Of a DNA stretch of 64,000 nt, positions 8,880 through 64,000 are shown piece by piece. The translations under genes were made by a program, and so were the position numbers. The notes beneath the pieces were generated by a model that was given only the letters and a program-made list of their open reading frames with translations, did not search any database and was not told the origin of the DNA. This DNA is from an uncultured Clostridia bacterium. Lineage in GTDB: Bacteria; Bacillota; Clostridia; Christensenellales; CAG-917. Numbering within the stretch: position 1 is the stretch's first letter; the number at the start of each line of letters is the position of its first letter. The stretch covers positions 31,754 to 95,753 of the forward strand of contig CANQNC010000003.1 in NCBI GenBank assembly GCA_947625145.1, read 5' to 3'.

Positions 8880-9125
8880 GGGCGGTTTCAAAAAATTTTT
8901 GTCCTCTCCGCACGCATTCAGAAATCAAAAACCATTCCAAAATTCGCCGATTTTTATAATAGTATTCAAAAAATCATTACAATTTGTAATACTTATTAGC
9001 CATATTTTTTGAAATTCTCCGCAAAACCCCACGTCATTCCTCAAAACGCTCCCTCTCAAAAAAAATCACTCTTCATACGCTTTCACTTCAAATCGGCAAG
9101 CCTTTTGCGCCTTTCAAGCGCTCTT

Positions 9126-9158
9126 CAAAAAGGATACGCGCCCGTTTCGGGCGCGTAT
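9126..9158 (-). terminator. rho-independent terminator after the 602-aa acidic protein gene
   Basis: An 11-bp GC-rich stem (ATACGCGCCCG / CGGGCGCGTAT) is followed by CCTTTTT on the minus strand. It starts 5 nt after the stop. Confidence 0.75.
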
Positions 9159-17477: not shown

Positions 17478-17947
17478 TTCAAACTCCTTTTGCCGCCCGA
17501 CGGCATATATGTCTTAAAATATGATAATATATTTTCACTCAAAATACAAGCGTAAATATTTCCTTTTGCACAATCTTCCCCCTTGAAAGCATTTCACGTT
17601 TCGCCAAAAGCCGAAAAACGCCCATACAAGCGCTCCACCTTTGATGATGACCCGAGTTTTTCCCATGAAAACGCTGCATGTTTTAATGGGGACCCCCATA
17701 GAAGCACTCGCCCAAGCTATCATATTATGAATAGGGCTGTTGACGCAGTATTTCGCTCAACAGCGCGAGTGGATAGGACATGATGACAACGCAAAGCATT
17801 ATAAAGACGTGTAAAACCGCAATATTGAGATGAGTGACAAGGAAGCGCCCCCTGAACGACAAGCCCAATCCCACCCCATGAAAACGCTACGCATTTTGAT
17901 GGGGACCCCGAGAAAATCCCCGTACAAACTATTGTGTTATGATAACT

Positions 17948-18273
17948 CTTGACACAGCTATTCGCCAAATAGCGCGGCAAGAGGACTTGATGTCCACGAA
18001 AAATAAGATAGAGAAAGGTAAAACCGCGATATTTGGATGCTAGGCTAGGAAACAGCCCTCTCCCGAGGCGCCTAGTGTACATGGCGTACACGACGGCGAG
18101 GACAAGCCCCCTTGACACAGCTATTCGCCAAATAGCGCGGCAAGAGGACTTGATGTCCACGAAAAATAAGATAGAGAAAGGTAAAACCGCGATATTTGGA
18201 TGCTAGGCTAGGAAACAGCCCTCTCCCGAGGCGCCTAGTGTACATGGCGTACACGACGGCGAGGGAGAGGGCT
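17948..18273. repeat. tandem duplication with a 163-bp period, two copies
   Basis: By eye, 17948-18101 and 18111-18264 are identical. The copies diverge only in the last ~10 nt. Confidence 0.85.
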
Positions 18274-18309
18274 GTTGACAACGCATAGCGCCAAATAGCG
18301 CGGTTTTAC
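18181..18309. repeat. complete 129-bp repeat element with 19-bp terminal inverted repeats (copy E1)
   Basis: The left end gtaaaaccgcgatatttgg (18181-18199) and right end ccaaatagcgcggttttac (18291-18309) are complementary in 18 of 19 positions. The internal hairpin spans 18216-18274 (CAGCCCTCTCCC...GGGAGAGGGCTG). Confidence 0.8.
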
Positions 18310-19289
18310 TTGCTGATGACGATGGCAAGATCATACAACTTCTGATCAAACTCCTTCGGCAAGGACAGCGCCTCCGCCACGGTGGTGTCGTAGATATCGC
18401 CGCCGCGGACGCCGACGACTCTGCCCGACTGACCGCACTGAATGAGGTCAACGGCGCGCTGAGCCATGCGGGAGGCGAGGACGCGATCGGACATGGTGGG
18501 ATTGCCGCCGCGTTGCATATAGCCAAGCGCCATATGGTTTACGCGGCGATTGGTTTCCGCCGCCACTTTTTGCAAAAGCTCGTCCTTCAAATAGTTTTTG
18601 CCCTCGGCGAGCAAGATGATGGTGGACGTCTTGCCCTTGTCGAAGCCGCGCTTCACGCTTTTTGCGATCTCGTCCACGTCCGCGGGGGCTTCGGGGACGA
18701 TGACATATTCCGCGCCGCCCGCCACGGCAGAGTTGAGCGCGATGTTGCCGCTCATCCTGCCCATGACCTCGAGGATCATGATGCGGTCGTGAGAAGTGAT
18801 GGTGTCGCGCAGTTTCAAGATGGCGTCTATGACGGTGTTGCAAGCGGTGTCGAAGCCTATGGTGTAGTCCGTATAGCCCATGTCGTTGTCAATGGTGCCG
18901 GGGATGCCGATGACGTTCAGTTCGGTGAAATCGTGAATGTCCTGCACTCCCCTGAACGAGCCGTCGCCGCCTATGACTATCAAATTTTCTATGCCTCTGT
19001 TGAGGAGGTTGTCCACCGCCTTTTTCATGACTTCCTTGTCCTTGAACTCGGGGCAACGGGAAGTGCGCAGAATGGTGCCGCCCGCGTGCACGCAGTTGGA
19101 CACGGAGGAATAGGGCATGGGGATTATCTCATCGCGGACGAGCCCGGAATAGCCGTGGCGCACGCCGTACATTTCAAAGCCCTGCGCCATGCCGTAGCGC
19201 ACGACTGTCCTGATGCACGCATTCATGCCCGAGGCGTCTCCGCCCGAGGTGAGCACTGCCAATTTGTTGTTTTTCAAAGTCTTTGCCAT
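18306..19289 (-). CDS. pfkA: ATP-dependent 6-phosphofructokinase
   Basis: I trimmed the start to ATG 19289 (MAKTLKNNKLAVLTSGGDASGMNA), which has a GGAG RBS. Motifs are VIGGDGSFRG, GIPGTIDND and MGR. The stop TAA at 18306-18308 lies inside the repeat terminus. Confidence 0.9.
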   Translation of the reverse strand: MAKTLKNNKLAVLTSGGDASGMNACIRTVVRYGMAQGFEMYGVRHGYSGLVRDEIIPMPYSSVSNCVHAGGTILRTSRCPEFKDKEVMKKAVDNLLNRGIENLIVIGGDGSFRGVQDIHDFTELNVIGIPGTIDNDMGYTDYTIGFDTACNTVIDAILKLRDTITSHDRIMILEVMGRMSGNIALNSAVAGGAEYVIVPEAPADVDEIAKSVKRGFDKGKTSTIILLAEGKNYLKDELLQKVAAETNRRVNHMALGYMQRGGNPTMSDRVLASRMAQRAVDLIQCGQSGRVVGVRGGDIYDTTVAEALSLPKEFDQKLYDLAIVISK

Positions 19290-19387
19290 AAAATTCTCCA
19301 TAAGGCCAAAAGCCGATCGTTTTGTGGGGGACGCGCACAAGCCCGTCCGATTGCTATTATATCACAATTTTTGCCATCTTCAACAGT

Positions 19388-51796: not shown

Positions 51797-54700
51797 TCAG
51801 ATCAACTTTTTGAGTTTGGACTTCCTTACGACGTACGCAAGCACTACGATCAGCACAAACGCCGCAACCGCGCCCGCAGCGCCGACCGCGGACCACACCG
51901 CCCACTTCGGCAGAGTCGGCGTGGAGAAGTCCACAAACACGACCTCGCCCAGATAGTCCGTGACAAACACTATGCTCGAGCCGTCCGCGGCTGTCTTGAG
52001 TTGATAGTCGGACAGTTTGGCAAGTCCGCCCTCGGGAGTACGCACATAGACGGCGGCGTCTTTGAGGTTTTGATCCACGCTTTCGGGGATCTTGATGGTC
52101 AATTCCATCAATCCTTTTGCCGCCACGCGCTGATTGTCGCAATACAGATCCATATGCACAACGCCCGCAAGCCTCGCCTTGGAGTTGATATACGGCATGT
52201 ATTGGTTGACTTTGTCCCACAGCTCGACATCCGCGCCGCTGCCGCTCTTACGCAAGATATTGCGCACTTCCAGCCTGTTTGCGATCACGCCCGCGGTCTC
52301 GTTGCCGCTGTCGTCCACAAGGCGCATACCGAAGTCGGAATTTCCGCTTTCGAACGCGCTTGCGGTCAGTTCCAAAATTCCGTCCGCGCCGACGAAGTTG
52401 TAGTTGTCTGCATTGAGGTCCTGCCCATTGACCGTGACTCGGAAGGTGTATCTGCCCGCGGAGTTGATCTCCTTTGCAAACACGATCTTGGTCATTGCCT
52501 TTGTAAGCGCGGCGGCGTTGCTCGGGTCTCCCATCGCGACGTTGTAGTCTATGTTGTAGGTCGCGTTTTCGCTGAACTTTTCGTTGAGAACGACGGGGGC
52601 TGTGGCGATCTCGTTTGCGCGCGCCGCGGAGCCGTTCATTCTGATGCCGCTGATGTTGACGATAGCCTTTCTGACGGTGATGCTTGCGGTGAAGGAAGTC
52701 TTTGCGTAGTTGGGATTTTCGGACTCGAATCTGTCGTTCAGCGCGACGACCACTCTGTACGTGCCCGCGTCTTTGATCTCAAAGGATTGCGGTTTCCCCG
52801 CATAATCATTGCGCGTGTTGCCGTCCATATAATAGTAGGTCACGTTGCCGTCCGCGTCCGTCTCGGAAAGCAGAGGTATCATGACGTCGCCCTGCATGAA
52901 GTAGGCGCAATAGAACGTCGTCCCTATCTGCTTTTCCACAACGAGGTCCGCGCAGCCTTCGCCGATGTTCTGTCCTTCACCATCTTGCCATGTGACTGAA
53001 GATTTGTTGCCCGAGTAGGCGTAAGTGTAAACTTTGCCGTCATACTCCTTGCTGTAATCGGTCGCGTAGAAGGTAGGAGTCGCCTTTGTGATCTCTATCC
53101 TGACGATCTTGTCGGACAGCCATTCGGCGGAATAGCCCGCGTCGCTGTCGCTCCACTTGACGATACGCGTGACTTTGAGTTTGCCCTCGTAAACGCCGAC
53201 GTTGATGGCTTTTTTCTTGTTGACGGTCGTCACGTCAAACTCAACGGTGTCGCCCGCGCGCAGGCCCACGAGCATTTCGGGAGTCCTGTCTATGGGGTTT
53301 GTGCCGGATTTGGCGTAAGTGAACGTCCTTTCCGTTTGATCCGCGAGGCTCACGCCCTCGACGACGGGCTCGGTGACCGTGAGGCGGGAGGTGTCCGCGA
53401 CAAACGAACTGCCGTCGTATTTCAGAATGAATCTGTATTCTTCGTTTTCCAACAGCTCGTGCCCTATGGTGCCGAACTCGAAGAGGTAGTTTTGGATGGA
53501 CGCTTCATAATCTTCGCCTGCCGCCATCTCGTATCTTGCCACATAGTACATTCCCGCTTCCTCTTGAGGCGCGGACAAGGAGAAGTTTGTGTCCGAAAGA
53601 GGAGTCGCGCTGCCCGAATTTATGTCGTACAGATACCACTTGAGCACGGGGCCGTGGTCAACGCCGCTCCAAACGAACACGCTCTGATAGGATTCGCCCG
53701 AAGCGAAGCCGAAGTCCGTGCCGTCCGACGCGTAGAACGCCAGAACAAATGACGTCGTGGGAAGAGGATCGCCGTAGCGCACCGTCGCGTCCGTGCCCGT
53801 TGTGGACACCAACAGCTTGCGTCTGACGATCTCCGCGACGGAAGTTGCGCTTCCGTCCGTTTGCGTGTAGACGTATTCGAAGTTGTAGTTCGACGCGCTT
53901 CCGTTGACAAGGCTGTACGACCTCGACTTGTCCCCCGCCTGCGGCTTGAACGAGGAGGAGAACACCGCCTTTGCGACGGGCAATGTGACCGCGCCTATCA
54001 GCCTGATATATTCGCCCTCGTTGCCGTCAGACGGCTGTGTGGCGGACAGTATGCTGCTCGTCTCGGGATCCGTGTTGAGGTTGTAGGTGTATTGGACGAG
54101 CGAGTTGATGTACGGAACGTCGTCCTTGTTTGTCTTTGCAAAACCGATGAGTTCGAGGTATTCGGCAAATTTGACATACAGCGCGCCCTCGAACAAGGTC
54201 AGCTTCTTGCCGCCCATGCTGTATTCCACGTCTCCGACGACGCTCTGGACGTTTGTGCCGTAGCTTATCTTCTTGTCTGCGAGCGAGGCTTTGACGTCGC
54301 GTTTTGTGATGGTCGCCTTGATGCGCGCGGTGGACAGCTCTCGCATCACATAGTTGCCCGCGTCCTTGCCGACGAAACTTTGGATGCTGAACACGACGTA
54401 TTGCGCTTCCGTGCCCGCGGAGTTAAATTCCGCGCTGAGCGTGCCTATGGACAGCTCGTCGCCCTCGACCGCGCCGACAATGGCGTTTTGGTTAAAGTCG
54501 TAGTCCTTCCCGACTTCGCCCGCAAACTTCACCGTGCCGTCAAAGACCTTTGTGAACGCGGTGGAGCCGTCCTTCGCGTAGATGCCGTCCGAGCTGATAT
54601 ACACCTTTTTGGGCTCGACAGTGCCCTGCATTGCGAAGTATTTGACAGAGCCGAGGGCTTCGATGGCGGCCACGTCGTCCGCGCCCTCCACGCTCTCGGC

Positions 54701-57700
54701 GCCTGCCGCGAGCGCGTAATAGCCCACGTTTTGATATTCGAAATATCCGAGGATAAATTCCTCGACCTTAGCCGCGTTTTCGGACTTCGCCTTGATGAAG
54801 AGGGAGGCCTCCGCAAGCGCGTACAGATATTTGACGGGAGCTTCCACGCTTGCCGCCGCTTCGTAATAGAAGTATTCCCCGCTCTTGTCCATTGCGCCGA
54901 TCAGCGTCCTGCCCTCGAGGGGCTTTTCGGAAGCTTCCGCAAGCACGTAGTTGCTTATCTTGCTGTTGGAGTTGATGAGCACGGGGTTGAACACGGCGCC
55001 GTCTTTGAGTCCGACGACCTGTTTTGCGACGTTGGACTCGTCGAGCTGTTGCACGTATTTGACGTTCTTGTCCGTGAAGAACGCGCCGATCGAGCCGCTT
55101 GACACGTTGTAGAAGTTGACGTCCTCGGGCAGGATGCCTTCAAGCGAATAGGACGGTCTGTACGCCTTGTTGTTGCCGTCGTAGGTCTTTGTGCCGAGTT
55201 CGCCCGTCAGCGCGACGGGGCGAGCGATGATCTCGCCGTAGAACAGGGACGTCGAGGGGATAAGCGTGTAGTTTTTGATGAGATATTCAAAGTCCTCGTC
55301 CGCGACTATCCTGCAATCTGACAGCGTGACTCTGATGTTCTGCTCCACGACGACTCGCGAGAAGTTGCCCGTTGCGACGATGCCGATATGCTCTCTTGCT
55401 CCCTCGGGCAGGTTGTGGTCCTCGCCGGGCAGGTCGATGGTGACGTGCGCGGTGTTGGTGCCGTCGTAGACTTTTTTGTCGATATGCACGTTTGTGTCAA
55501 TGACGTGCAGGTCGAATTTGGTGATAGCGATCGCGTTCAGGATCTCATAATCGCTTATGTACGTATCCGTCGTGACTTCGCCGATGGGGTTGTACGAGTC
55601 GCCGCTGCTGTTGTAGATGTAGCCTAATATGGTGTAGTTGTTCAGCAAGCTGAGGTCGTCCACCTGCACTTGAAGCCCTTGCACGAGGACGTTGTGCAAA
55701 ATCACTCTGCCCTGCGCGTCGAAAGCGACGTTCGGGTCTGCGGCGCCCTTGTCGGACAAAATGTAGGTGGGTTCGCCCACGATCTTGATGCGTTCAAGCT
55801 CGTGCTCGAGTTCGGTCGAGTAGAAGACCGTGGTGAAGTTGTGCTGTTCATAGCCGCTGTTTTTGGACACGGCTTTTTCGTCGAGTTCCGCCGAGCCGTT
55901 GTACGCTCTGGGATTGAACGTGACGTTTGGCACCAGCTTTGCCCTTGTGATGTCCACAGTAAGAGAAGTCGTGGACAGGAAGTACGTCCTAAGCGCTTCT
56001 ATGTCAAGCTCGTAATTTTTGTTGCGCACGTCTGAAGCGTCCGACAACGTGACCGTGTGGTTGCCCGCGTTTGGCGAATCGGCGTCGCCTTTGAGGGTGA
56101 GTCCGACGGAAGCCGCGGAGTCCCCGGGAGCGAGCGCGCCGTCCGCGAAGCTGAAGTTGACGTCCACCGAGGTCTTGGAGTTGTAGTCCCTGCTCTCCGC
56201 GAAAACGCTGTCCGCGACAAAGGACGCGGCGTTGAGTTTGCGTTTGACGATGGAGGCGTTCAAGTTGACGATGGTGACCAAGAAGCCGCCTTCCTGCACG
56301 GCAATCGTCACGTCGCTTCCTTCGAGATTTATGACGTTGAAGCCGTCCGCGTGTTCTATGGGGAAGAAGATCTCGAGATTGACGATATACGTGCTGCTGA
56401 CTCCCGATCCCGCAAAGCGCGTGCTGTGCTCGGCGATCAGTTGCGCCGCGCCTCCCATCAAGATGGTTGCGAGCACGTTGGGCGAGCCCGAGCCGTCATC
56501 GGGACGAGAGCCGATGCTTATGTTTGCAATCGTGAGGCTTGTGGAGCCGTCGTACATCTTGCTGACCGTAATGTCTTGTTTCCTCAAGCCCAAGTTGCCG
56601 ATGAGGATGACTATCCTTTCCTTCTCGCTCGCGTCCGCCTTATTATTTATATATTTTATTATTATTTCAATAATATCCGAAATATCTATGCCGCTCATCG
56701 CTTCGCTTTGGTCGAGCATGCGGTCGCCGTCATAGATCTCGGCTTCGTTGTCCTTGTTGGAGTTGTAAATCTTGCCGAGGACATAGTTGTACGCCTTTGA
56801 CCCTTCGATCGCGAGTTTTTTGAACCTGATGGAGGTATAGACAGGCTCGGTCATACTGCCCGCTTCCTCAAACGCCGCTTCGAACACGAGGTACACGTCG
56901 TCGCTGTTGAGCACGATTGAGTTGAAGTCGTACGCGATGACAAGATCGGCGCCCTCCGCCGCGAAGAGTTTGTTGTTTTTGTACAGCGCGTTGACAGTGC
57001 CGTCATACGTCTTGCTTATGCCCACGAAATTGGCGACGTCGAGGTTTACGGTCAAGGGGTTGATGACAAGCCTTGTTCCGATCAAATTGTCCTCGCCCTC
57101 TACCTCGACAGAGAAGTTGTTGTCTCTTATCGCGAACGCGAGCGCGATCGTCAATGCGTAATAGTCGTTTGTGCCGTCAAGGCAGTTGCCGAGATCGTCT
57201 GTCGCGCAGTCCCATTGCGAGATGACGGTCGGCGTGCCGTCCTCCCTGAAGCGTCCGCGCCCGAAGTTGCCCGAGACAAGCGCCAAGATCTCCGCGTAGC
57301 TCTTCCCCGCGTAGGAGAAGGAGGCTTTGTCGTCCACGGTCTCGCCGTTGACCGAGGCGATCTCAAATCCGATGCCGAAATCCGCGTCTACTCCGCCGTA
57401 GACCCTGTTTGTTTTGGCAATTGTGGGTCGCACGGAGACGACCGCCTTTGTCACTGTAAATCTGAAGGGGCTGACCACGATCAAGAGGTCGGGAATCTCC
57501 TCTCCGCTCTCGTCGAAGATATGCACGTCCGAAGCGTTGACGTTGTATGTGTTCGCGTTGAGCATGCCGCCGTCGTGGATGTCCTCCGAGTTGCCGCTCA
57601 GCGCAAGTTGCCACGTCACGCTCCCCGCGGTCTTGCCCTCGGGAAGTCCCGTAAGCTCGAACAGCTCCGCGCTGAACTTGATGAGATCGTTGTTCCAGAT

Positions 57701-60700
57701 CACGCCGTACGCGAAGGACAGCGCGCGCCTCAGCGTGATGATGACCGCCGCCTCGCCCGCAAACTTGACCACAAAGACGATCTCGTCGCCCTCGCCTATC
57801 GTCAACTTGACGTTTTCGTTTTCCGTGAGTCCGCCGAGCAAAATATTGTACAGTCTGACTTCCTTGAAGCCTTCCTCGGAGCTTGGCGTAAAGCTCGGGT
57901 CGATGGACAGCGTTGCGCCGCCCTCAAACAGTTTTGCCACCTCATTGGCGACAAGCCTCAGGTTGTCCTCTCTTGAAAGGGCGTAGTCCACGCTGAGAGA
58001 AGACGGGTCGAAGCTTTCGAGCTGACTTGGCGCGAGCACGACTTGATGACCCGACACGTTGAGTTTGACCGTACGCTTTGTGATGGTGAACATGGAATTC
58101 GATTGCACCCCAAGCGAATAGTTTGAGTTGACTTCAAATCTGCTTGCCGAGCTTGAGAAGTTGTATTGCGCAACGTTTTCGCCCTCCTGACGTTGGATGC
58201 GGCCTGCGGTGTCCTCGCTGACGAGATAGGTTTGGCCGTCCGCTTCCGTCCGTTCGATGATTTCGCCCACGGCGTCCCCGAGCATCTCTTTCAACAGGGC
58301 TTTGATGTCGTCGTCCGACATGCCCTCGAAGTCGGATTTGCGCGCGCCGAACATGAAGTGCGGGTCGGGATCGCCAAACGCCTTTGTCGCCGCCATGACG
58401 TAGATGTTGACGCTCTTGGCTGTGATGATGTATGTCACATTTGAAACAAACGTGACGTTGAAGTTTTCGCCTAGGCTGAACGCCTTGTCCTGCACTATGG
58501 TGTACTGTCTGACGGCAAGTTTTGCCGCGCCGTTGTAGAAGCCGTCCGCGTCCACGGACCAACCCTCCACGCCGTCGAGTTTGAGCGTGCCGACCACGCC
58601 GTCCCCGATCTCGAGGCGAATGGCTTCGTCCGAGATGACCGCGCCCGTCGCGCCGTCCGTGATCTTGAAGGTCAGTTTGACCTTGTCGCCGTACACCGAA
58701 TTGCCGCCGTCGGGGGTCACGGTGACGTTGCCCTGCAAGATCTCGAAAGAGAATTCCTCGGGGATCTGCGAAGAGACTTGCGGATCCGTGCACGAGGGGT
58801 CGAGTTCGACCTTCGGCATGTTGAAGTTTGCGGCGACGACCGCCTCGTCGTCGTACGGGAAATACGCAAGCAGCGTATATTTGCCCCTGTTGTACGGCGC
58901 AAAGAAGGTCGCGTTGCCGTCATCGTCCTTTGTCGCGTCTTCGAAGTTGTTTGTGAATTTAAGTCTGATATCCTCGCTGGCGTCGTCCTTGAAGTACATC
59001 ACGCCGCCATCGTTTTTGAACACTTTCAAAAACCTTTTGATGATTGCGGCGGTCAACTCGTCGGACAGCGTTTCGTCGTGCAGAGTGATCGCGGGATCCG
59101 CGGGTTTTGCGGTGTAGTTGGCGTTTGCTTCCGTCTGGAAGCTGACCACAAGCCTCGGCTGGACTGTGTATTCAACTGTCAAGCCGCTTGCTGTGGGAAG
59201 CTGTCCGAAATCGGGCGTATCCAAATGCAACGTGATCGCGCGCGGGTCGTTCAAGCCGTCGAAGCTGTATCTTCCGTCACCCTCTCCCGCATTTATTGTT
59301 TCAATGTTCTCAAAGAAAGATTTGTAATCGGCGTCTCTGAGCGTCCACCTGCTTTGTTGCGAGAAGTTGTCAAGCAGGACCACGCCGTCGTGTCCGCCGA
59401 GGAACATCTTGAACGGGACAAACCCCGTCTCATAGTCCAAAGTCAGATTGAGTTGCGCGCCCCTCTTCAATGTCGTGGTCGAGTCGCCGAAACTTCCGCT
59501 GACGCAGGTCAGATCGCTCAACAGGCTGTCCTTGTAGACGTTCAACCGCACGGAATAGGTGTTCCAATCCACAAACATTCTGTAGGTTTGCAGATCCGAT
59601 TTGTTGCCCGCCTGATCCTCCGCCCACACGTAGAACACGCGCAAGCCCACGCCAGCGGTCTGTATCAGATCCTCGGACTGACCCTCCAAGTCGTCCTCAA
59701 ACGGGCCTTCTTTTGTGACGAATTTGTCGAAATATGTCGAGAAGTTGTCACTCGTGATGGTCTTGTAGAGCGCCTCTATGTTCAGGTCCCTGAGCTGCCC
59801 CAGCTGTTCCGCGTTCGTGACGACCTTGACGCCGTAGTGTATCTTAAGCATAGAGCCGTAGTCGTCGTCTGCCAAAAACGCGTCTCCGTCGTCGAAGTGG
59901 AAGGTGGCGTTCATCGTCCAAGTCACGGTGTACCACAACCTTTCCGAAAGCAGGGCCGCGAAGTCGTAGATCGCGCCCTCTACAAACGCGCCGCTTGCGG
60001 TCTCGTCCAAGACGGTGGGCTTGCCGGGCGCGCGTGCGTCTATCAATATGTTTGTGCAAGGATCCCAACCGATCTCCGTCAAAGGTTTGCTGACGTTGGG
60101 ATTGTCATAGTTGTCTTCTTCTATGTTCGCTTGAGACAACACCCCCGTGTACACGACGAAGGCAGGCTTCCAGATCACCGCGAAGCTGTTGCCCGTGCCG
60201 TCGTCCGCGCTCACGTCGAAGGACAGGACGTTGCTTCTGTACGAAATGGTCAACTTCGCGTTTTTGTTGTCGCCCAAGCCCGACGGCAGGTCAAGCGTCA
60301 TGCCGCCCACCGCGTCGTTTCCTTTGTACAAAGTGGCGTTGCCGCCGCTTATTTGAACCGAATAGTCGTCCTCGCCTATGCCGAACGTGACCGTGTTGCC
60401 CGAAATGTTGGGCGCGGTGAACGCAATGTTGAACTTGCCCGACGTCGCGGTGATCCACGCTCCGTTTTCCGCGGCGGATATCTTTTTGGCTTCGCCGCCG
60501 TCAAAGGAGATGTTTGTGCCCGCCGCGTTCAAAGACGCGGGATCGTAGTCCACCTTGACGTAGTAGGTCTTCGGGCTTGACGAAATGTTGCCCGCGAAGT
60601 CCGCAACGTAGAATGCAAATCTATAATACCCGCACCCCGTCACGGCGGACTTGTCCCCATACACGGACTTGCCGTTTGCGGTGCCGTTTGCAAAGTCGTA

Positions 60701-62758
60701 GGAGAACGAGCTCATCTGCGACTGACTGAACGCCAGATAGTTTGCGAATATACTGTTGTAACACGGATCGGTCGCGGGGTCCGAAACGGTCTGCTTGTAA
60801 TCTCGCAAAAAATTGCTTTTGTACTCTGGCAATTTATCCAAACTCTCCTGAGGGAATGTCGTGTTCGTGGATTTTGTCACGTGGACAAACCAAAGCAGAG
60901 GCGCGCCGCTGTTTGCCGTGGAGTTTGTGTTCGGCTCGGCAGAGAGCGAAGAGACTCTGCGCCATTGTTTGCTGCTGAGCACATTCGAGCCTGATAAGAG
61001 GTTTAACGCGAGATATGCGTCCGAGTCGTTGAAAGTCAAATAACTTGACGCACTCGGAGCAGCGGTGTCTATTCCGCCGAACTCTATCGTCTTTGACACG
61101 GAATTGGCATAGCCGTAATCTGCGGGAGTGGATTCGCCGAAATCGTACGCCGTGATCTTGAATGTCGCGTTCTTTGCGGCGTACACCGTCACTGTGGCAA
61201 GCCCTCGGCTTGTCTTTTCCACCTTCACCACCGCGTACGTCGTGCCCGAACTTGATTTTATGACGGCATAACTTGTGCCGCTTGCGCCGGGGCAGCTGAT
61301 CGTCTGAGTGCTCCCCACAGTCGTTTGACCGCCCAACGAGTCCGTTTCCGTGACCGAAACTTCTATCTTTTTCACTCCGCCCGCCGCGGTGGTCGTGTTT
61401 CCGCTTGACGGGGACGTCTGACCGGTTTGATATGCGTTGCCCTGATCAAGATATTTGCCGAAAACTCCCACGTAATTCCTCGCGGTCGAGCCGATCTCCT
61501 TCAACACGTCGACCGAATAGCCTTGTCGGTTGTAATAGTTGTATGTATCCGCAAACGTGACGTCCGCCAGCTTGTAGTATGAGCCCGTCGCGCTTGAATA
61601 GATCTTCGAAAGGTCCCCGAGCACCGTTGACGTGTAGGATTGAAGCAATATCTTGCCCGTTTCGTTGTAGTTGGGCGTGTCCAACTTCTTTTCAAGTTCT
61701 GATTGTATCTCGGGATACCAGACCTCGAATTTGTCCCTGTTCGCAAAGTCCGCGCTTGTCCTGTACGGCGCCCAATTTGCGGTGTAAACGCTCTCGTTGT
61801 TCCACAATGTCGAACTGTCCTTCCAAATCGGGAAGTCGCTCACGACAACGGGCGCGCCGCCGTCGTAGTATGTCGAATTACTTGAGAGAGAGGGGTTTTT
61901 GAGAGAGACGGAATAGCTTATTTTGAGGTTGATTATTCTGCCCTCGGGGTTGGCATAGCCCGTAGTAATTCCCGTACGGTGTTGATATGTTATGGACACC
62001 ATCGGAATAATATACACGGTGTCTTTTGCAAGCGTAAATGTGTAAGAATAGTCTCTCGTGACCCATGTGCCGTTTGAGTCGTTGTTTATTTGACTGCTTC
62101 CGCCGCCGTTGTCCGTCGGTTTGTGAGTTATGGAAGAGCTGGTCACTCTTGAAGCGGAAATTTTGCCTCCGCAATAAAGCGTACCGTTAGATCCAACTTT
62201 GTCAGCATTGCAAATTCCACCTTGATAGGACAGCTTAGCTGTGACGGTGTGCCCGTTTGCCGCAAGCATCCTTATCAGCGCGGGCACTTGAATGTTGAGC
62301 GCGGCTGCGACGTCATACTCCGCGTAGCACTCCACTGTGCCGAACCTGAACGTGCCGTTCGTGCCCGTCCATATGCGCAACGCGGTGTCTCCGCCTGTTT
62401 TTTGTATGATGAGTTTGTCCGAGTCGCCACCTACGTTGTTGAAAGTCTCGTCGTACGAAAAGGAAGTCCCGCTGCTTACATAAGGATATTTGAGATCGAC
62501 TGCGCTTATATCGCCGTGGTCTCCGAAAAACGGATTGCCCGCACCGTAATCATTCTTTTCTTTGCCCTCTGAGCTCGTCTCCCAGTCCGCATACGCGGGC
62601 TTGACCCTGTTGCCAAACGCAAGGACAAGCGCGAACACCGTGACAAAACATACGGCAAGCGCCAAAAACTTGAGCAGATTGATCCGCTTCTCCCTCTTCC
62701 CGCCCGAAACGGCGCCGCGAGCGAAGCGCATGTCTGTGCTGAAATTGTTTGTTCTCAT
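51797..62758 (-). CDS. giant (3653 aa) secreted surface protein rich in MBG/YDG-type repeats, with a C-terminal TM anchor
   Basis: I trimmed the start to ATG 62758 with RBS AAAGGTGA; the track start at 62767 is GTG. The signal/anchor is LLKFLALAVCFVTVFALVLAF followed by AYA/DWE. At least ten repeat seeds are present (KKVYDGTNTAHV, KTYDGNNKAY, KTYDGTVNAL, KMYDGSTSLT, KVFDGTVKFA, KEYDGKVYTY, RAYNGSAEL, RVYGGVDADF ...). The C-terminus is WAVWSAVGAAGAVAAFVLIVVLAYVVRKSKLKK. I saw no LPXTG. Confidence 0.9.
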   Translation of the reverse strand: MRTNNFSTDMRFARGAVSGGKREKRINLLKFLALAVCFVTVFALVLAFGNRVKPAYADWETSSEGKEKNDYGAGNPFFGDHGDISAVDLKYPYVSSGTSFSYDETFNNVGGDSDKLIIQKTGGDTALRIWTGTNGTFRFGTVECYAEYDVAAALNIQVPALIRMLAANGHTVTAKLSYQGGICNADKVGSNGTLYCGGKISASRVTSSSITHKPTDNGGGSSQINNDSNGTWVTRDYSYTFTLAKDTVYIIPMVSITYQHRTGITTGYANPEGRIINLKISYSVSLKNPSLSSNSTYYDGGAPVVVSDFPIWKDSSTLWNNESVYTANWAPYRTSADFANRDKFEVWYPEIQSELEKKLDTPNYNETGKILLQSYTSTVLGDLSKIYSSATGSYYKLADVTFADTYNYYNRQGYSVDVLKEIGSTARNYVGVFGKYLDQGNAYQTGQTSPSSGNTTTAAGGVKKIEVSVTETDSLGGQTTVGSTQTISCPGASGTSYAVIKSSSGTTYAVVKVEKTSRGLATVTVYAAKNATFKITAYDFGESTPADYGYANSVSKTIEFGGIDTAAPSASSYLTFNDSDAYLALNLLSGSNVLSSKQWRRVSSLSAEPNTNSTANSGAPLLWFVHVTKSTNTTFPQESLDKLPEYKSNFLRDYKQTVSDPATDPCYNSIFANYLAFSQSQMSSFSYDFANGTANGKSVYGDKSAVTGCGYYRFAFYVADFAGNISSSPKTYYVKVDYDPASLNAAGTNISFDGGEAKKISAAENGAWITATSGKFNIAFTAPNISGNTVTFGIGEDDYSVQISGGNATLYKGNDAVGGMTLDLPSGLGDNKNAKLTISYRSNVLSFDVSADDGTGNSFAVIWKPAFVVYTGVLSQANIEEDNYDNPNVSKPLTEIGWDPCTNILIDARAPGKPTVLDETASGAFVEGAIYDFAALLSERLWYTVTWTMNATFHFDDGDAFLADDDYGSMLKIHYGVKVVTNAEQLGQLRDLNIEALYKTITSDNFSTYFDKFVTKEGPFEDDLEGQSEDLIQTAGVGLRVFYVWAEDQAGNKSDLQTYRMFVDWNTYSVRLNVYKDSLLSDLTCVSGSFGDSTTTLKRGAQLNLTLDYETGFVPFKMFLGGHDGVVLLDNFSQQSRWTLRDADYKSFFENIETINAGEGDGRYSFDGLNDPRAITLHLDTPDFGQLPTASGLTVEYTVQPRLVVSFQTEANANYTAKPADPAITLHDETLSDELTAAIIKRFLKVFKNDGGVMYFKDDASEDIRLKFTNNFEDATKDDDGNATFFAPYNRGKYTLLAYFPYDDEAVVAANFNMPKVELDPSCTDPQVSSQIPEEFSFEILQGNVTVTPDGGNSVYGDKVKLTFKITDGATGAVISDEAIRLEIGDGVVGTLKLDGVEGWSVDADGFYNGAAKLAVRQYTIVQDKAFSLGENFNVTFVSNVTYIITAKSVNIYVMAATKAFGDPDPHFMFGARKSDFEGMSDDDIKALLKEMLGDAVGEIIERTEADGQTYLVSEDTAGRIQRQEGENVAQYNFSSSASRFEVNSNYSLGVQSNSMFTITKRTVKLNVSGHQVVLAPSQLESFDPSSLSVDYALSREDNLRLVANEVAKLFEGGATLSIDPSFTPSSEEGFKEVRLYNILLGGLTENENVKLTIGEGDEIVFVVKFAGEAAVIITLRRALSFAYGVIWNNDLIKFSAELFELTGLPEGKTAGSVTWQLALSGNSEDIHDGGMLNANTYNVNASDVHIFDESGEEIPDLLIVVSPFRFTVTKAVVSVRPTIAKTNRVYGGVDADFGIGFEIASVNGETVDDKASFSYAGKSYAEILALVSGNFGRGRFREDGTPTVISQWDCATDDLGNCLDGTNDYYALTIALAFAIRDNNFSVEVEGEDNLIGTRLVINPLTVNLDVANFVGISKTYDGTVNALYKNNKLFAAEGADLVIAYDFNSIVLNSDDVYLVFEAAFEEAGSMTEPVYTSIRFKKLAIEGSKAYNYVLGKIYNSNKDNEAEIYDGDRMLDQSEAMSGIDISDIIEIIIKYINNKADASEKERIVILIGNLGLRKQDITVSKMYDGSTSLTIANISIGSRPDDGSGSPNVLATILMGGAAQLIAEHSTRFAGSGVSSTYIVNLEIFFPIEHADGFNVINLEGSDVTIAVQEGGFLVTIVNLNASIVKRKLNAASFVADSVFAESRDYNSKTSVDVNFSFADGALAPGDSAASVGLTLKGDADSPNAGNHTVTLSDASDVRNKNYELDIEALRTYFLSTTSLTVDITRAKLVPNVTFNPRAYNGSAELDEKAVSKNSGYEQHNFTTVFYSTELEHELERIKIVGEPTYILSDKGAADPNVAFDAQGRVILHNVLVQGLQVQVDDLSLLNNYTILGYIYNSSGDSYNPIGEVTTDTYISDYEILNAIAITKFDLHVIDTNVHIDKKVYDGTNTAHVTIDLPGEDHNLPEGAREHIGIVATGNFSRVVVEQNIRVTLSDCRIVADEDFEYLIKNYTLIPSTSLFYGEIIARPVALTGELGTKTYDGNNKAYRPSYSLEGILPEDVNFYNVSSGSIGAFFTDKNVKYVQQLDESNVAKQVVGLKDGAVFNPVLINSNSKISNYVLAEASEKPLEGRTLIGAMDKSGEYFYYEAAASVEAPVKYLYALAEASLFIKAKSENAAKVEEFILGYFEYQNVGYYALAAGAESVEGADDVAAIEALGSVKYFAMQGTVEPKKVYISSDGIYAKDGSTAFTKVFDGTVKFAGEVGKDYDFNQNAIVGAVEGDELSIGTLSAEFNSAGTEAQYVVFSIQSFVGKDAGNYVMRELSTARIKATITKRDVKASLADKKISYGTNVQSVVGDVEYSMGGKKLTLFEGALYVKFAEYLELIGFAKTNKDDVPYINSLVQYTYNLNTDPETSSILSATQPSDGNEGEYIRLIGAVTLPVAKAVFSSSFKPQAGDKSRSYSLVNGSASNYNFEYVYTQTDGSATSVAEIVRRKLLVSTTGTDATVRYGDPLPTTSFVLAFYASDGTDFGFASGESYQSVFVWSGVDHGPVLKWYLYDINSGSATPLSDTNFSLSAPQEEAGMYYVARYEMAAGEDYEASIQNYLFEFGTIGHELLENEEYRFILKYDGSSFVADTSRLTVTEPVVEGVSLADQTERTFTYAKSGTNPIDRTPEMLVGLRAGDTVEFDVTTVNKKKAINVGVYEGKLKVTRIVKWSDSDAGYSAEWLSDKIVRIEITKATPTFYATDYSKEYDGKVYTYAYSGNKSSVTWQDGEGQNIGEGCADLVVEKQIGTTFYCAYFMQGDVMIPLLSETDADGNVTYYYMDGNTRNDYAGKPQSFEIKDAGTYRVVVALNDRFESENPNYAKTSFTASITVRKAIVNISGIRMNGSAARANEIATAPVVLNEKFSENATYNIDYNVAMGDPSNAAALTKAMTKIVFAKEINSAGRYTFRVTVNGQDLNADNYNFVGADGILELTASAFESGNSDFGMRLVDDSGNETAGVIANRLEVRNILRKSGSGADVELWDKVNQYMPYINSKARLAGVVHMDLYCDNQRVAAKGLMELTIKIPESVDQNLKDAAVYVRTPEGGLAKLSDYQLKTAADGSSIVFVTDYLGEVVFVDFSTPTLPKWAVWSAVGAAGAVAAFVLIVVLAYVVRKSKLKKLI

Positions 62759-62893
62759 AATCTTCACCTTTTCCCAAAACCCCGCCTCCGCCGAACCCTG
62801 TCTCAGCAGAACCCCGCCTCAGCCGACTTTTGGATATCCCCATTGCGCCTCATGCGCCTGTGCACATGCATACGCAATATTATACTTAATATT

Positions 62894-62923
62894 ATTTTAC
62901 TATCCCCATTTCCATTCTGTCAA
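62894..62923 (-). promoter_or_regulatory. promoter of the giant surface-protein gene
   Basis: The minus strand reads TTGACA-18 nt-TAAAAT, about 135 nt upstream of the ATG at 62758. Confidence 0.5.
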
Positions 62924-63022
62924 TACCCATTTCTCCTTTTAATAATTTTAACCTTATCCCCCCGCGCTTCCCGCTTTCTTCTTCCCCTCGCTTTTCGTTT
63001 CCCGCCCAGCTTTCCAACTTCT

Positions 63023-63581
63023 ATTGCCAAATAGCGCGGTGGTTGACAACGCATAGCGCCAAACAGTGCGGTGGATAGGGCACGAGGTCACCCCAAAATA
63101 TGATAAAAACGTGTAAAACCGACTGTACGGGATGAAGAACAAGGAAGCGCCCCCTGAATGACAAGCCCAATCCCACCCCATGAAAACGCTACGCATTTTA
63201 ATGGGGACCCCGGGGAAGCCCTTTGTATTAACTTTTTGAGAGCAAAGCTGACACAGCTATTCGCCCTGACAAACAGAAATAGTTTATGTAAAACCGCGAT
63301 ATTTGGATGCTAGGCTAGGAAACAGCCCTCTCCCGAACCGCCTAGTGTACAAGAAGTACACGACGGCGAGGGAGAGGGTTGTTGACAACGCATAGCGCCA
63401 AATAGTGCGAGTGGAGAGGATACCATGTCACCGCACAACAAGATAAAGAAATGTAAAACCGCCTGTACGGGATGAAGAGCAAGGAAAAACCCATTTTGCG
63501 AACTGCCTAATGTACAAAAAGTACATGACAGTGAGCAAAATGGGTTTTGACACAGCTATTCGCCCGTACAGACGGTTTTAC
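63023..63581. repeat. cluster 2 of the same structured repeat family (about 3.5 units)
   Basis: It lies between the mnmA stop and the giant-gene promoter. 63101-63265 is homologous to 17801-17966, and 63288-63410 is homologous to 18181-18302. Confidence 0.8.
63453..63581. repeat. complete 129-bp repeat element with 19-bp terminal inverted repeats (copy E2)
   Basis: The left end gtaaaaccgcctgtacggg (63453-63471) and right end cccgtacagacggttttac (63563-63581) are complementary in 18 of 19 positions. The internal hairpin spans 63486-63548 (AAAACCCATTTTGC...GCAAAATGGGTTTT). Confidence 0.8.
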
Positions 63582-64000
63582 CTGATTGGGGCGCCACCTA
63601 AGCACTCAACAAACGAACTGCTTCCATCTCCGTCCATGCTCCCATCTTCGCCCTCGTACGGCACATAGATCACGGCGTATTGGCCCGAGGCGATGGCGCG
63701 CTGAGGCGCGGCAAAGGTCAAATGTACGTCCCCGTTTTCAAGCACGCGCGCGGTGGCGGCTTGAAGGGGTTGACGATGCTTGATGCGGACGCGACACTCA
63801 AACTCGCGCGACGGGGGCGGCGTGATGAAATTGAAGCCCTCGGTGACAAGTTCGCTCCCGAAAAGCACGCTGTCCTCGCCCTGCGACACGACAAGACGAT
63901 TGTGTTCGACGTCCTTTGACAGGACAAACCACCTTTCGCCGTTGCCGTCCGCGCTTCCGCCTATGCCCAGCCCTCTGCGCTGACCGATTGTGTAGAAGTA
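63578..64000 (-). CDS. mnmA: tRNA 2-thiouridine(34) synthase MnmA, C-terminal part; the gene runs off the right edge
   Basis: The frame is open to the window end. The window end reads YFYTIGQRRGLGIGG on the minus strand, which is the MnmA motif. The C-terminal barrel reads RIKHRQPLQAATARVLENGDVHLTFAAPQRAIASGQYAVIY. The stop TAA at 63578-63580 lies inside the repeat terminus. Confidence 0.85.
   Translation of the reverse strand, partial: YFYTIGQRRGLGIGGSADGNGERWFVLSKDVEHNRLVVSQGEDSVLFGSELVTEGFNFITPPPSREFECRVRIKHRQPLQAATARVLENGDVHLTFAAPQRAIASGQYAVIYVPYEGEDGSMDGDGSSSFVECLGGAPIR

Follow-up and report, generated by a model that had tools for sequence, protein, structure and literature searches.

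The repeat cluster at the end of the window (the whole 64-kb stretch of DNA that was analysed) is made up of one intact and several increasingly decayed copies of a non-coding, multi-copy palindromic element of about 129 nt, and the same repeat family forms both this cluster (cluster 2) and cluster 1 of the window. The helices of the element vary in sequence while retaining their pairing, two loops and an apex are conserved, and one end of the element docks on the stop codon of a gene. The family is probably a REPIN/MITE-like self-propagating DNA hairpin that also gives the docked gene a 3' hairpin of the A4-stem-U4 terminator type. Judging by Rfam and by the literature that was searched, it is apparently undescribed: across the whole window no Rfam match reached the gathering thresholds, permissive E-values on 62950-63650 yielded only chance matches to miRNA precursors (E >= 0.29), text-string look-ups of the conserved motifs in the literature gave no match, and nothing relevant was found in the literature on repeats in Christensenellales. 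No tRNA or tmRNA genes were found, and consensus scans for promoters and simple terminators put neither cluster above the shuffle expectation and did not call the hairpins.

The gene-proximal member of cluster 2, E2 (63453-63581, plus strand), is a complete 129-nt unit that scores 123.2 bits with the covariance model of the family. Its outer arms, GTAAAACCGCCTGTACGGG (63453-63471) and CCCGTACAGACGGTTTTAC (63563-63581), enclose a left loop (GATGAAGAGCAAGGAA) and a right loop (TGACACAGCTATTCGC), an inner stem formed by AAAACCCATTTTGC (63486-63505) and GCAAAATGGGTTTT (63529-63548), and the apex ATGTAC-AAAAA-GTACAT. Within its right terminus lies the TAA stop codon of mnmA (63578-63580, minus strand; agG TAA AACCG in gene sense), which is offset by +1 relative to the right end of the element and closes a translation ending in ...GGAPIR*. 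This gene, which carries the docked cluster 2, encodes a tRNA 2-thiouridylase (Pfam tRNA_Me_trans_C and _M); its 3' part occupies 63582-64000 on the minus strand, and the gene extends past the window end. On the other side of E2, an inter-unit spacer or 'tail' (63411-63452, plus strand), A-rich on the plus strand, T-rich in gene sense and situated immediately after CGGTTTTAC, is homologous to 63071-63112 (direct repeat, 82%). It is adjoined by an array-internal unit (63288-63410, plus strand; fold z -7.7, 101.6 bits) that forms the full hairpin, its right arm stopping at ...AGTGCGA without TTTTAC; both the fold and the covariance model bear out its earlier description as an E1-type element, from which only the TTTTAC right terminus is missing.

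Further from the gene, the copies are increasingly degraded. 'Unit A' (63113-63282, plus strand), which scores 31.9 bits over the full covariance model with an insertion, consists of an E2-type left arm (GTAAAACCGACTGTACGGG, 95% complementary to the E2 right arm), a left loop, a foreign core with a hairpin of its own (CCCCATGAAAACGCTACGCATTTTAATGGGG), a right loop (cTGACACAGCTATTCGCC) and a degenerate right arm. The most distal remnants (63025-63070, plus strand) comprise a lone right arm (CCAAATAGCGCGG) and an E1-type right loop plus right arm (TTGACAACGCATAGCGCCAAACAGTGCG), 63038-63070 being 94% identical to 63377-63409. The array is placed between the mnmA stop codon and a promoter-like site (62894-62923, minus strand; TTGACA-18-TAAAAT, 11/12), a consensus match only, which would serve the next gene downstream of mnmA in the same direction, a 3656-aa ORF.

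Cluster 1 has a comparable composition. Its complete unit, E1 (18181-18309, plus strand; 129 nt), holds the TAA stop codon of pfkA (18306-18308, minus strand) inside its right terminus. An E1-type internal unit (18018-18146, plus strand; z -2.65, 81.6 bits) belongs to a 163-nt tandem duplication (repeat 96%) and has lost its inner stem through the replacement of one inner-stem arm; a second 'unit A' (17811-17983, plus strand; 28.3 bits) shares its foreign core with 63113-63282; and the distal remnants (17662-17810, plus strand), with direct repeats within cluster 1, contain a partial unit-A core hairpin, a right loop and arm (TTGACGCAGTATTTCGCTCAACAGCGCG) and a spacer.

Comparison of both clusters confirms what the first-pass annotation had read from the sequences of E1 and E2, with one correction, on a T-run of E2 (below). 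The extreme termini said to be kept in E2 are indeed shared, since GTAAAACCG occurs eight times in the window, against 0.4 expected, three times on the plus strand and then once on the minus strand in each cluster (17811, 18018, 18181 and then 18301 in cluster 1; 63113, 63288, 63453 and then 63573 in cluster 2). The outer arms that differ between E2 and E1 do pair, with 18/19 positions complementary in E2 and the same geometry built from other stem sequences in E1, as does the divergent inner stem of E2 (90% complementary), and the conserved apex, CCTARTGTAC-N5-GTACAYGAC, has four occurrences against 0 expected. Both complete units fold as the same 129-nt hairpin, with z-scores of -9.6 to -14.8 on either strand and as DNA or RNA.

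Beyond the window, an unbiased left-end pattern together with the covariance model brought to light more than 100 full-length copies at about 70 loci, almost all of them in uncultured gut Clostridia or human-gut metagenomes. Used alone, the left-end pattern yielded about 15 true loci out of 24 in species-representative genomes and 50 in metagenomes, and the covariance model gave 184 matches, about 115 of them full-length in forward orientation. Two pattern matches on viral contigs were discarded as chance, given that the covariance model does not match them. From the outside inwards, the A-rich terminus of each unit is followed by a variable outer stem (about 19 bp), a loop pair, a variable inner stem (10-14 bp) and the conserved apex GTAC-N5-6-GTAC. 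The GTAAAACCG terminus is replaced in some copies by CGTAAAGCG, AAATAAACG or GAATAACAAAG, and the dominant subtypes are genome-specific: E1 arms prevail in the window, E2 arms in MAG CANQCC01. The loops are conserved, non-complementary and asymmetric, GATGAAGAACAAGGAA standing opposite TGACAAAGTTATTCGC, and on the plus strand they give an invariant T·G and tandem G·A/A·G. Readings of these loops as sites for CsrA, Hfq or anti-Shine-Dalgarno pairing, or as a K-turn, were dropped, as GGA is lost in many copies and there is no 3-nt bulge by the tandem G·A. The plus strand, antisense to the docked gene, is the more stable of the two in 48/59 copies folded as RNA and in 55/59 folded as DNA. A pure sense-strand terminator model does not predict this better folding of the plus strand.

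That structure is kept while sequence varies, as first proposed from E1 and E2, is strongly supported by covariation over many copies. Both-sided changes were found in 29/41 pairs (23/32 in another count). Across 30 copies, 90.7% of the cells are paired, against 73% after shuffling and at most 46% with the partners slid, and 224 cells carry both-sided changes, against 71 shuffled and at most 77 slid. Among 90 non-identical copies there are at least 31 outer-arm types and at least 49 inner-stem types, outer and inner stems being freely recombined in 57 combinations; this wider set, with its many intermediate and recombined stem types, excludes the possibility that the covariation is an artefact of two unrelated sequence families.

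The kind of pairs and the timescale of their changes are informative about how the pairing is kept. Leaving out two fixed wobble positions, the variable helices contain 3,207 Watson-Crick, 55 G·U and 66 A·C pairs, and strain variants at the same site show 42 one-sided against 3 two-sided changes. Covariation is strong, as in structured non-coding RNAs generally, but the greater tolerance of G·U over A·C that such RNAs show on the transcribed strand was not found in the variable helices. Because G·U is about as frequent as A·C and same-site changes are mostly one-sided, pairing would appear to be enforced at propagation or restored by template switching. These observations speak against strong purifying selection that would keep every resident copy paired as an RNA. 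The selection on a folded nucleic acid that had been suggested has partial support, and of the two substrates named, single-stranded DNA or RNA, the evidence favours DNA over a classical structured RNA.

The second characteristic of the family is its position. The right end of the element adjoins a converging long ORF, with the stop codon inside the terminal stem, a relation that the left end lacks: over 48 distinct right-flank contexts, the stop of a converging ORF (at least 100 codons) falls between -15 and +6 nt from the right end in 33, exactly at +1 in 19 of these 33, while the same criterion gives 1/48 for the left end, so that the orientation relative to the gene is nearly fixed, at 33 to 1. 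Most of the other right-flank contexts are array-internal units. The docked genes end in TAA in 29 cases (about 90%), in TGA in three and in TAG in one, against a background of 107 TAA, 141 TGA and 39 TAG (Fisher p = 2e-8). The association between repeat and stop codon is near-absolute and phase-exact. We know of no transposition chemistry that explains this precision. Docking on stop codons in one orientation is the main contextual fact absent from the first-pass annotation.

In the sense of the docked gene, TTTT follows the stem in 83-94 of 96 units, internal ones included; the A-tract is dispensable. The base of an intrinsic terminator is present (CCGCG...CGCGG, then TTTT), although the stem, interrupted and about 55 bp long, is far from the short type of 5-14 bp with a loop of 3-8 nt. 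The earlier suggestion of a terminator in the minus-strand orientation gains plausibility from the stop-codon docking and from the A4...T4 base, but the GGG followed by TTTTT in E2, put forward as its tail, is not one, as this T-run sits within the inner stem; the relevant T-tract is the TTTTAC following the outer stem. The docked unit probably also terminates transcription, protects the 3' end or insulates mnmA from the gene that follows. It is not a general terminator, since the 64-kb window has roughly a dozen or more operon ends and the element is found at just 2 of these.

Presence and type of the element vary among close relatives, which have different subtypes, or none, at the same stop codon. 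At one and the same stop codon, pfkA orthologues (84-91% identity) have any of six arm types or no element at all, the docked element being present in 6 of 10 sampled lineages; among the loci examined, only these pfkA relatives qualified as empty sites, and of the four, only locus L075 reads TAA|TTTTACA. Some arm differences between species at pfkA resemble compensated in-place substitutions (TTTGG/CCAAA versus TTCGG/CCGAA), which fits host-level constraint on resident copies as well as turnover. Matches in mnmA relatives are mostly fragments from very short contigs; in one relative an element lies 65 nt downstream, undocked and facing the other way, and in another the element is absent. Array content differs between strains at two other genes, the gene-proximal unit being always complete. 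The history of the arrays is not reducible to simple insertions; slippage or recombination is suggested by microhomologies at their junctions (CTTCC, GGAAGT) and by arms duplicated in a b-core-b'-b pattern. Invasion of a native terminator stem by a smaller element was ruled out, because identical outer arms recur at unrelated genes.

A self-propagating DNA hairpin would account for these features as follows. Only lineages with pairing arms would give new copies, because a hairpin in single-stranded DNA would be required for propagation, and template switching during replication may copy one arm onto the other; template switching is known to make and repair perfect stems (PMC8794818). The expected outcome would be many stem variants with Watson-Crick pairing on both strands, while resident copies would later decay. 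New copies would insert in one orientation right at the TAA stop or at the gene-proximal end of a resident copy, in which case older copies would be displaced, and arrays would come to have a single right end but several left ends. In gene sense, a docked unit reads stop-AAAA-stem...stem-UUUUAC, a terminator-type hairpin of the A4/T4 kind typical of Firmicutes.

With regard to the machinery involved, tblastn searches of the window and the loci (about 0.6 Mb) with IS200 TnpA, IS608 TnpA and E. coli RAYT found no credible transposase, and no Y1/HUH enzyme was found in the same 0.6 Mb. The sole tblastn match, at locus L010 (E = 0.025), is at chance level; it falls in non-coding DNA flanked by two convergent genes, both of which have a docked element of their own. 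The covariance-model matches included no autonomous version in which an ORF splits the two ends, and no clear target-site duplication was found, TAA...TAA flanks being limited to a few single copies. The lack of a linked transposase, the lack of a clear target duplication and the unexplained precision of docking are points against self-propagation.

It is also conceivable, if tentative, that the family represents a new class of bacterial mobile DNA, in the form of a protein-less hairpin module that homes to TAA stops in fixed orientation. Under such a reading, the stop codon would form the base of the stem, propagation would proceed through a single-stranded DNA enzyme or a template switch at replication, the module would serve as a portable terminator or insulator, and the asymmetric loops would be the recognition site of a partner.

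Among the alternatives, the least unlikely is a host-functional cis-acting RNA, that is, a 3'-UTR module (terminator, 3'-exonuclease block or protein-binding hairpin) under locus-wise selection, which would have been disseminated by duplication or recombination and not by transposition. The single orientation in which the element docks on stop codons agrees with it, as do the gene-sense U-tract of every unit next to a dispensable A-tract, and a shape that equals the A4/T4 terminators of Firmicutes (PMC1590033), whereas a normal terminator has nothing like these conserved 16-nt loops in a stem that spans about 55 bp with interruptions. The recurrence of the docked element at pfkA, with partly in-place compensated divergence, would point in the same direction; against this, close relatives carry unrelated subtypes at the same site and others are empty. 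At the level of the pairs, G·U is no commoner than A·C on either strand and most strain-level changes break pairs. Finally, in gene sense the conserved positions amount to C·A and U·C/C·U mismatches, and it is the sense strand that folds worse.

A cut-and-paste MITE of an IS630/Tc1-like or IS5-like element is improbable. In such an element, the transposase would recognise the terminal inverted repeats in double-stranded form and duplicate a TA or TAA target, and since a single enzyme would bind either end, the two arms would change in step. The runs of T3-5 followed by A at both ends and the TAA...TAA flanks of L031/L069, L028 and L034 are in line with this, and an A-initial insertion into the TA of TAA or TAG would regenerate TAA, matching the depletion of TGA; most distal ends, however, read TAC, not TAA. 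TA is found at both ends of most copies, where it is not separable from the palindrome, and the distal consensus is TTTTACA. Instead of the conserved terminal repeat of a MITE, the family has at least 31 perfectly complementary arm types, which cannot all be sites of a single sequence-specific transposase, and covariation is just as good in the inner stem, which is no part of a terminal repeat. Nor are the conserved segments inverted copies of each other, the orientation to the gene is nearly fixed, and the parent IS was not found.

More improbable still is a small or protein-binding RNA transcribed from the plus strand, antisense to the end of the docked gene and with a tandem G·A hairpin, of which tandem gene copies would make up the arrays. 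The better folding of the plus strand is consistent with such an RNA, together with the invariant U·G, the pair at the base of the apex, for which G·U, G-C and A-U occur but A·C never does, and the invariant GGAA/UGAC, which can make tandem sheared G·A pairs; the variable stems nevertheless show no excess of wobble pairs. Boxes resembling a -10 element (TATAAA, GATAAA) precede GTAAAACCG by 5-6 nt in the four spacers of the window, but they were not flagged by the promoter scan, and other species do not conserve them, their spacers reading ...GAAAGAAACGT. Internal units have no T-tract on the plus strand, and a match in Rfam is absent.

The core sites of attC are RYYYAAC (R'') and GTTRRRY (R'), and cassettes made of an ORF and an attC site form arrays beside intI. 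An integron-like site of the attC type, or another folded site of a tyrosine recombinase, has only a very slight chance of being correct: a structure conserved rather than its sequence, conserved unpaired bases, a length (129 nt) inside the attC range and frequent overlap with the stop codon of the upstream ORF are common to both, but the termini GTAAAAC / GTTTTAC do not fit the core sites, the tandem units are not separated by cassette ORFs, pfkA and mnmA, on which the element is docked, are housekeeping genes with a conserved location beside dnaE, and no integrase was seen in the ORF list of the window.

The family is a clean natural case in which helix sequence changes freely and pairing is kept, and the evidence from two timescales separates pairing at the birth of a copy from selection on resident copies, which bears on how covariation should be interpreted as evidence for functional RNA. 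Its hosts are abundant uncultured gut Clostridia, including Christensenella-like organisms, Ca. Limadaptatus and CAG:475, and to our knowledge almost nothing has been reported on the non-coding DNA of these bacteria. The element could be miscalled as a structured RNA in annotation, and several contigs end inside it, so that it probably breaks metagenomic assemblies. If its terminator function is true, it would be a selfish or domesticated portable terminator.

In RAYT/REPIN systems, which are mainly proteobacterial, two inverted copies of a conserved REP palindrome on either side of a spacer make the hairpin, which is mobilised by a RAYT transposase (Y1, IS200-like) whose gene typically has the repeats at its sides. 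The REPINs described in Pseudomonas fluorescens SBW25 share with this family a non-coding, extragenic and multi-copy nature, a long hairpin of about 70-130 nt predicted in single-stranded DNA or mRNA, conserved blocks split by variable stretches with frequent compensatory changes, tandem clusters that include flanking sequence, with insertion beside existing copies, and genome-specific subfamilies (PMC3116915). They differ in that the conserved parts here are two different 16-nt loops and an apex, not inverted copies of a REP palindrome, the pairing arms being the variable parts; the GTAG-type REP head is absent, RAYT was not found in about 0.6 Mb and the hosts are Clostridia. In addition, REPINs are reported to lie at random in extragenic space, in contrast to this family with its one-way docking at stop codons. 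Elements of the IS200/IS605 group (PATE-like; single-stranded DNA peel-and-paste) insert in a set orientation 3' of a short target, without duplicating it, and have a TnpA or TnpB partner. Such elements are compatible with the fixed orientation, with the position right 3' of TAA on the coding strand, which here is the lagging-strand template according to GC skew, and with the intact copy of an array lying next to the target, although no TnpA was found in about 0.6 Mb and there are no separate LE/RE hairpins.

The Efa (EFAR) repeats of E. faecalis, the Ype repeats of Yersinia and ERIC are likewise repeats of about 100-170 bp that fold as long RNA or DNA hairpins, and have been proposed to stabilise or terminate co-transcribed mRNA, as is suggested here; insertions of the Efa and Ype families are located close to where coding sequences end, on their 3' side (PMC1590033). 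They have no sequence similarity to this family, which has hypervariable covarying stems instead of conserved terminal inverted repeats, a stop codon at fixed phase in the terminal stem and a nearly invariant orientation. Lastly, the A4/T4 Rho-independent stem-loops found near stop codons in low-GC Firmicutes resemble a docked unit in their GC-rich stem base with about four A on the 5' side and four T on the 3' side, their position directly after the stop codon and their potential to act in both directions (PMC1590033). Those stem-loops are 30-50 nt long and mutually unrelated, whereas the units described here belong to a homologous 129-nt family that forms arrays and conserves its loops and apex.

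The two arrays in the window, clusters 1 and 2, belong to one hairpin-forming repeat family whose units comprise outer arms, conserved left and right loops, an inner stem and a GTAC...GTAC apex. In E2, the complete 129-nt unit of cluster 2 (63453-63581), the 19-nt arms (63453-63471 and 63563-63581) pair at 95% and the inner stem is 90% complementary. As the first-pass annotation had noted, the stem sequences differ from those of E1, the complete unit of cluster 1 (18181-18309), with the layout unchanged, and both units fold into an identical 129-nt hairpin shape, whichever strand is folded and whether as DNA or as RNA (folding z of -9.6 to -14.8). The apex motif, also described there as conserved, is present in four copies against none expected in the window, and GTAAAACCG in eight against 0.4 expected, three times on the plus strand and then once on the minus strand in each cluster. 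Cluster 2, which lies between the mnmA stop and a promoter-like site of the next gene, is an array in which a single intact unit adjoins 63581 and damage grows leftward. It includes an E1-type copy (63288-63410), correctly recognized from the start and lacking only the right-terminal TTTTAC, a unit with an unrelated hairpin module in place of its centre (63113-63282) and arm and loop remnants (63025-63070); a single right arm is able to pair with each of three left arms.

A second repeated module with its own hairpin, GCGCCCCCTGAAYGACAAGCCCAATCCCACCCCATGAAAACGCTACGCATTTTRATGGGGACCCC, is found at 17830-17910, at 63135-63215 and, in part, at 17662-17703, and takes the place of the inner stem and apex in one unit per window cluster. 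A related module (GGGGGTCCCC...) lies in the pfkA array of a relative (L077, ~4110-4160), and modules of this type may be a separate small element nesting inside the hairpin family. Directly downstream of cluster 2, a 3656-aa ORF (51797-62767, minus strand) has as its only Pfam match one YDG domain (residues 2734-2810) and probably encodes a giant surface protein.

Beyond the window, a pattern fixing no more than the left terminus and some of the left loop, and leaving the arms, stems, apex and right half free, matched 24 loci in species-representative genomes. About 15 of these are true copies, all hosted by uncultured Clostridia, Christensenella sp., Ca. Limadaptatus or Firmicutes CAG:475, and the remaining matches are chance occurrences in other phyla, in a number near expectation. 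A similar pattern retrieved 50 metagenomic loci, mostly from the human gut. Thirty copies could be aligned to a single architecture, with invariant positions on the left (GATG, C, G, AA), at the apex (GTAC...GTAC) and on the right (TGAC, CGC), and a covariance model built from this alignment gave 184 matches in the window and 66 loci, about 115 of them full-length and forward. Viral contigs held no copy of the element, no Rfam family matched it, and, within the literature library searched, neither the conserved motifs nor the host group gave a match. Assembled contigs frequently break off within the element or no more than a few dozen bases past the docked stop (L083, L084, L094-L098, L076 and many mnmA fragments), and for many homologues of the docked genes the records consist solely of fragments on very short contigs; the repeat is probably a breakpoint in the short-read assembly of metagenomes.

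Pairing is maintained across the family by changes on both sides. RNAalifold predicts 32 pairs, 23 of which show such changes; in the full 41-pair structure, 90.7% of cells are paired, against 73% after shuffling and at most 46% after sliding, and double-change cells number 224, against 71 and at most 77, respectively. The 90 non-identical full-length copies comprise at least 31 outer-arm and at least 49 inner-stem types, one outer arm occurs with as many as seven unrelated inner stems, and the 'terminal' GTAAAACCG itself covaries in some copies (CGTAAAGCG/CGCTTTACG, AAATAAACG/CGTTTATT). The covariation therefore does not reduce to two unrelated families without intermediates, the case that the first-pass annotation had set against its own reading.

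The type of pairing is informative as well. If the helices belonged to a transcribed structured RNA, one strand would accept G·U much more readily than A·C. This pattern is seen on neither strand of the element, in which helix cells outside two fixed positions comprise 3,207 Watson-Crick, 55 G·U and 66 A·C pairs. Among same-site strain variants (12 groups), 42 changes are one-sided and three pairs are altered on both sides, one of them compensated, and variation in paired columns is only slightly below that in unpaired ones, so that in resident copies pairing is without strong protection over short times. Structure is conserved where sequence is not, as first proposed, but these one-sided changes and the balance of G·U and A·C speak against strong selection on each resident copy as a folded RNA. 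Pairing is a property of the lineages that spawn new copies, or of mutational copying from arm to arm. Template switching at quasi-palindromes is known to copy one arm from the other (PMC8794818). At L044 (5608-5736, minus strand, with flanks), the inverted repeat runs about 10 nt into coding sequence, its far arm repeating in inverted form the final codons of the docked gene together with the stop, which fits an arm-copying process; TTCGAGTTGGAATAACAAA on both sides of the inverted repeat, there and at L074 (~8900-9146), suggests palindrome growth by template switching.

The conserved loops are non-complementary and remain so across copies, which argues that something selects for them. On the plus strand they contribute an invariant T·G together with a tandem G·A (GGAA/TGAC), and the pair at the base of the apex is G·T, G-C or A-T, never A·C. 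This strand forms the more stable fold in 48 (RNA) and 55 (DNA) of 59 complete copies. Together with the GTAC apex, the loops are the strongest candidates for a site at which a propagating or binding partner would recognize the element.

Regarding their location, both window clusters lie directly 3' of minus-strand housekeeping genes, pfkA (PF00365) and the end of mnmA, with the TAA stop inside the right terminus of the element (G TAA AACCG in gene sense). Of 48 distinct right-flank contexts in the collected loci, 33 have a converging ORF (100 codons or more) whose stop lies between -15 and +6 nt relative to the right end, in 19 of them exactly at +1; the left end gives 1/48 by the same criterion, and the 15 non-docked contexts are mostly array-internal units. 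Docked ORFs end in TAA in 29/33 cases, against 107/287 for the remaining long ORFs in these loci (Fisher p = 2e-8). Three or four further ORFs enter the element and stop at +23, the position at which the conserved right loop has its TAA (gene sense GCGAATAAC), so that the element supplies stop codons in two reading frames; these stops are TAA in L034 (6760-6887) and L052 (1755-1884) and TAG in L061 (1893-2019 and 14386-14515). TTTT follows the unit in gene sense in 83-94 of 96 cases, internal units included, and the matching A-tract is restricted to the gene-proximal unit. The docked element thereby has the same shape as the A4/T4 terminator-like stem-loops found close to stop codons in low-GC Firmicutes (PMC1590033), and with this A4-stem-U4 form it is likely to serve the host gene as a terminator or in 3' protection. 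One mnmA relative is an exception, its element lying 65 nt downstream, in opposite orientation, behind a small ordinary terminator. In the more distant L088-L090 (1393-2429), mnmA is called as two overlapping ORFs, an N-terminal PF03054 part and the C-terminal barrel domains, through either a frameshift or a genuine split. In a few copies (L021 7698-7720, L012 ~5060-5080, right ends of L009 and L050), the 10-11 terminal bases are duplicated in tandem between element and stop codon (e.g. TGCGGTTTTAG TGCGGTTTTAG); these duplications may be traces of earlier copies or have arisen by slippage.

The pfkA site illustrates the turnover of the family. Sampled PfkA orthologues share 84-91% identity with the window protein, and elements docked on the same stop in six lineages have six different arm types: CCGCGCTATTTGG in the window, CCGTCTGTACGGG (the E2 type) in L083, CTGTGTGAAACAG in L077, TTCCGTTATTCGG in L093, CCGCGCTATTTAG in L094 and CGGCGCTATTTGCC in L097. 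Some of these differences look like in-place substitutions with compensation; other arms are unrelated subtypes, which implies replacement. The site lacks an element in L075, L080, L081 and L082, as the covariance model confirms. L075, a single case, may have lost the hairpin cleanly, its pfkA stop TAA being directly followed by TTTTACA, the consensus normally 3' of the distal arm. At two other genes, array content varies between strains, the gene-adjacent unit always being complete and the older distal units truncated at the left loop; array junctions show short microhomologies and duplicated arms, and the dominant subtypes differ genome by genome. Such polymorphism is characteristic of a repeat family in active turnover and not of a fixed structural gene. 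Cluster 1 itself separates two tandem phosphofructokinase genes (PF00365; 16230-17477, 415 aa, and 18306-19340, 327 aa, both minus strand). Upstream of pfkA, dnaE is found both in the window and in all sampled relatives with enough upstream sequence, whereas the downstream gene differs in almost every lineage, which marks the 3' end of pfkA as a hotspot of rearrangement. Downstream of pfkA, the element-free L080 (3985-4530) and L082 (2812-3160) carry other GC-rich repeated motifs (CCCCGGCAAGGGGTTTCACCCCCTGCACCCCAAGC, GTCCGAGC..., CATTTCGAGC.TAGTCGAGAAATCCCCTTGTCCGAGC), a different intergenic repeat family.

The conclusion drawn, as the most likely reading, is that these are DNA hairpins of the REPIN/MITE kind that propagate themselves. 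Propagation probably needs the hairpin itself, a requirement that would explain why both strands pair in Watson-Crick fashion and why copies decay once resident. The fixed orientation, the position directly after TAA on the coding strand and the arrays in which the intact copy adjoins the target would all be compatible with a putative enzyme of the IS200/IS605 type, inserting single-stranded DNA in one orientation. The coding strand is here the lagging-strand template, the minus strand being the G-rich leading strand. A search of about 0.6 Mb found no enzyme of this type, and the element ends are unlike those of that family. Duplication of a TA or TAA target would account for the TAA bias, but it leaves the hypervariable arms and the fixed orientation unexplained and is improbable.

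Compared with known systems, self-propagating hairpins of this kind resemble REPINs, non-coding extragenic hairpins with frequent compensatory changes that occur in tandem clusters including their flanks (PMC3116915), but differ in having no REP doublet, and no RAYT was found. Classical MITEs do not apply, as conserved terminal repeats are absent and no parent IS was found, nor does attC, whose core sites and cassette structure are missing; for an ordinary terminator the element is too large. By analogy, the element appears to work most like a REPIN and to be placed like the Efa and Ype repeats, and it can be filed as a member of the palindromic intergenic repeat elements, among which two features are unusual: the phase-exact docking on TAA stops in a fixed orientation, and the conserved asymmetric loops between freely covarying stems.
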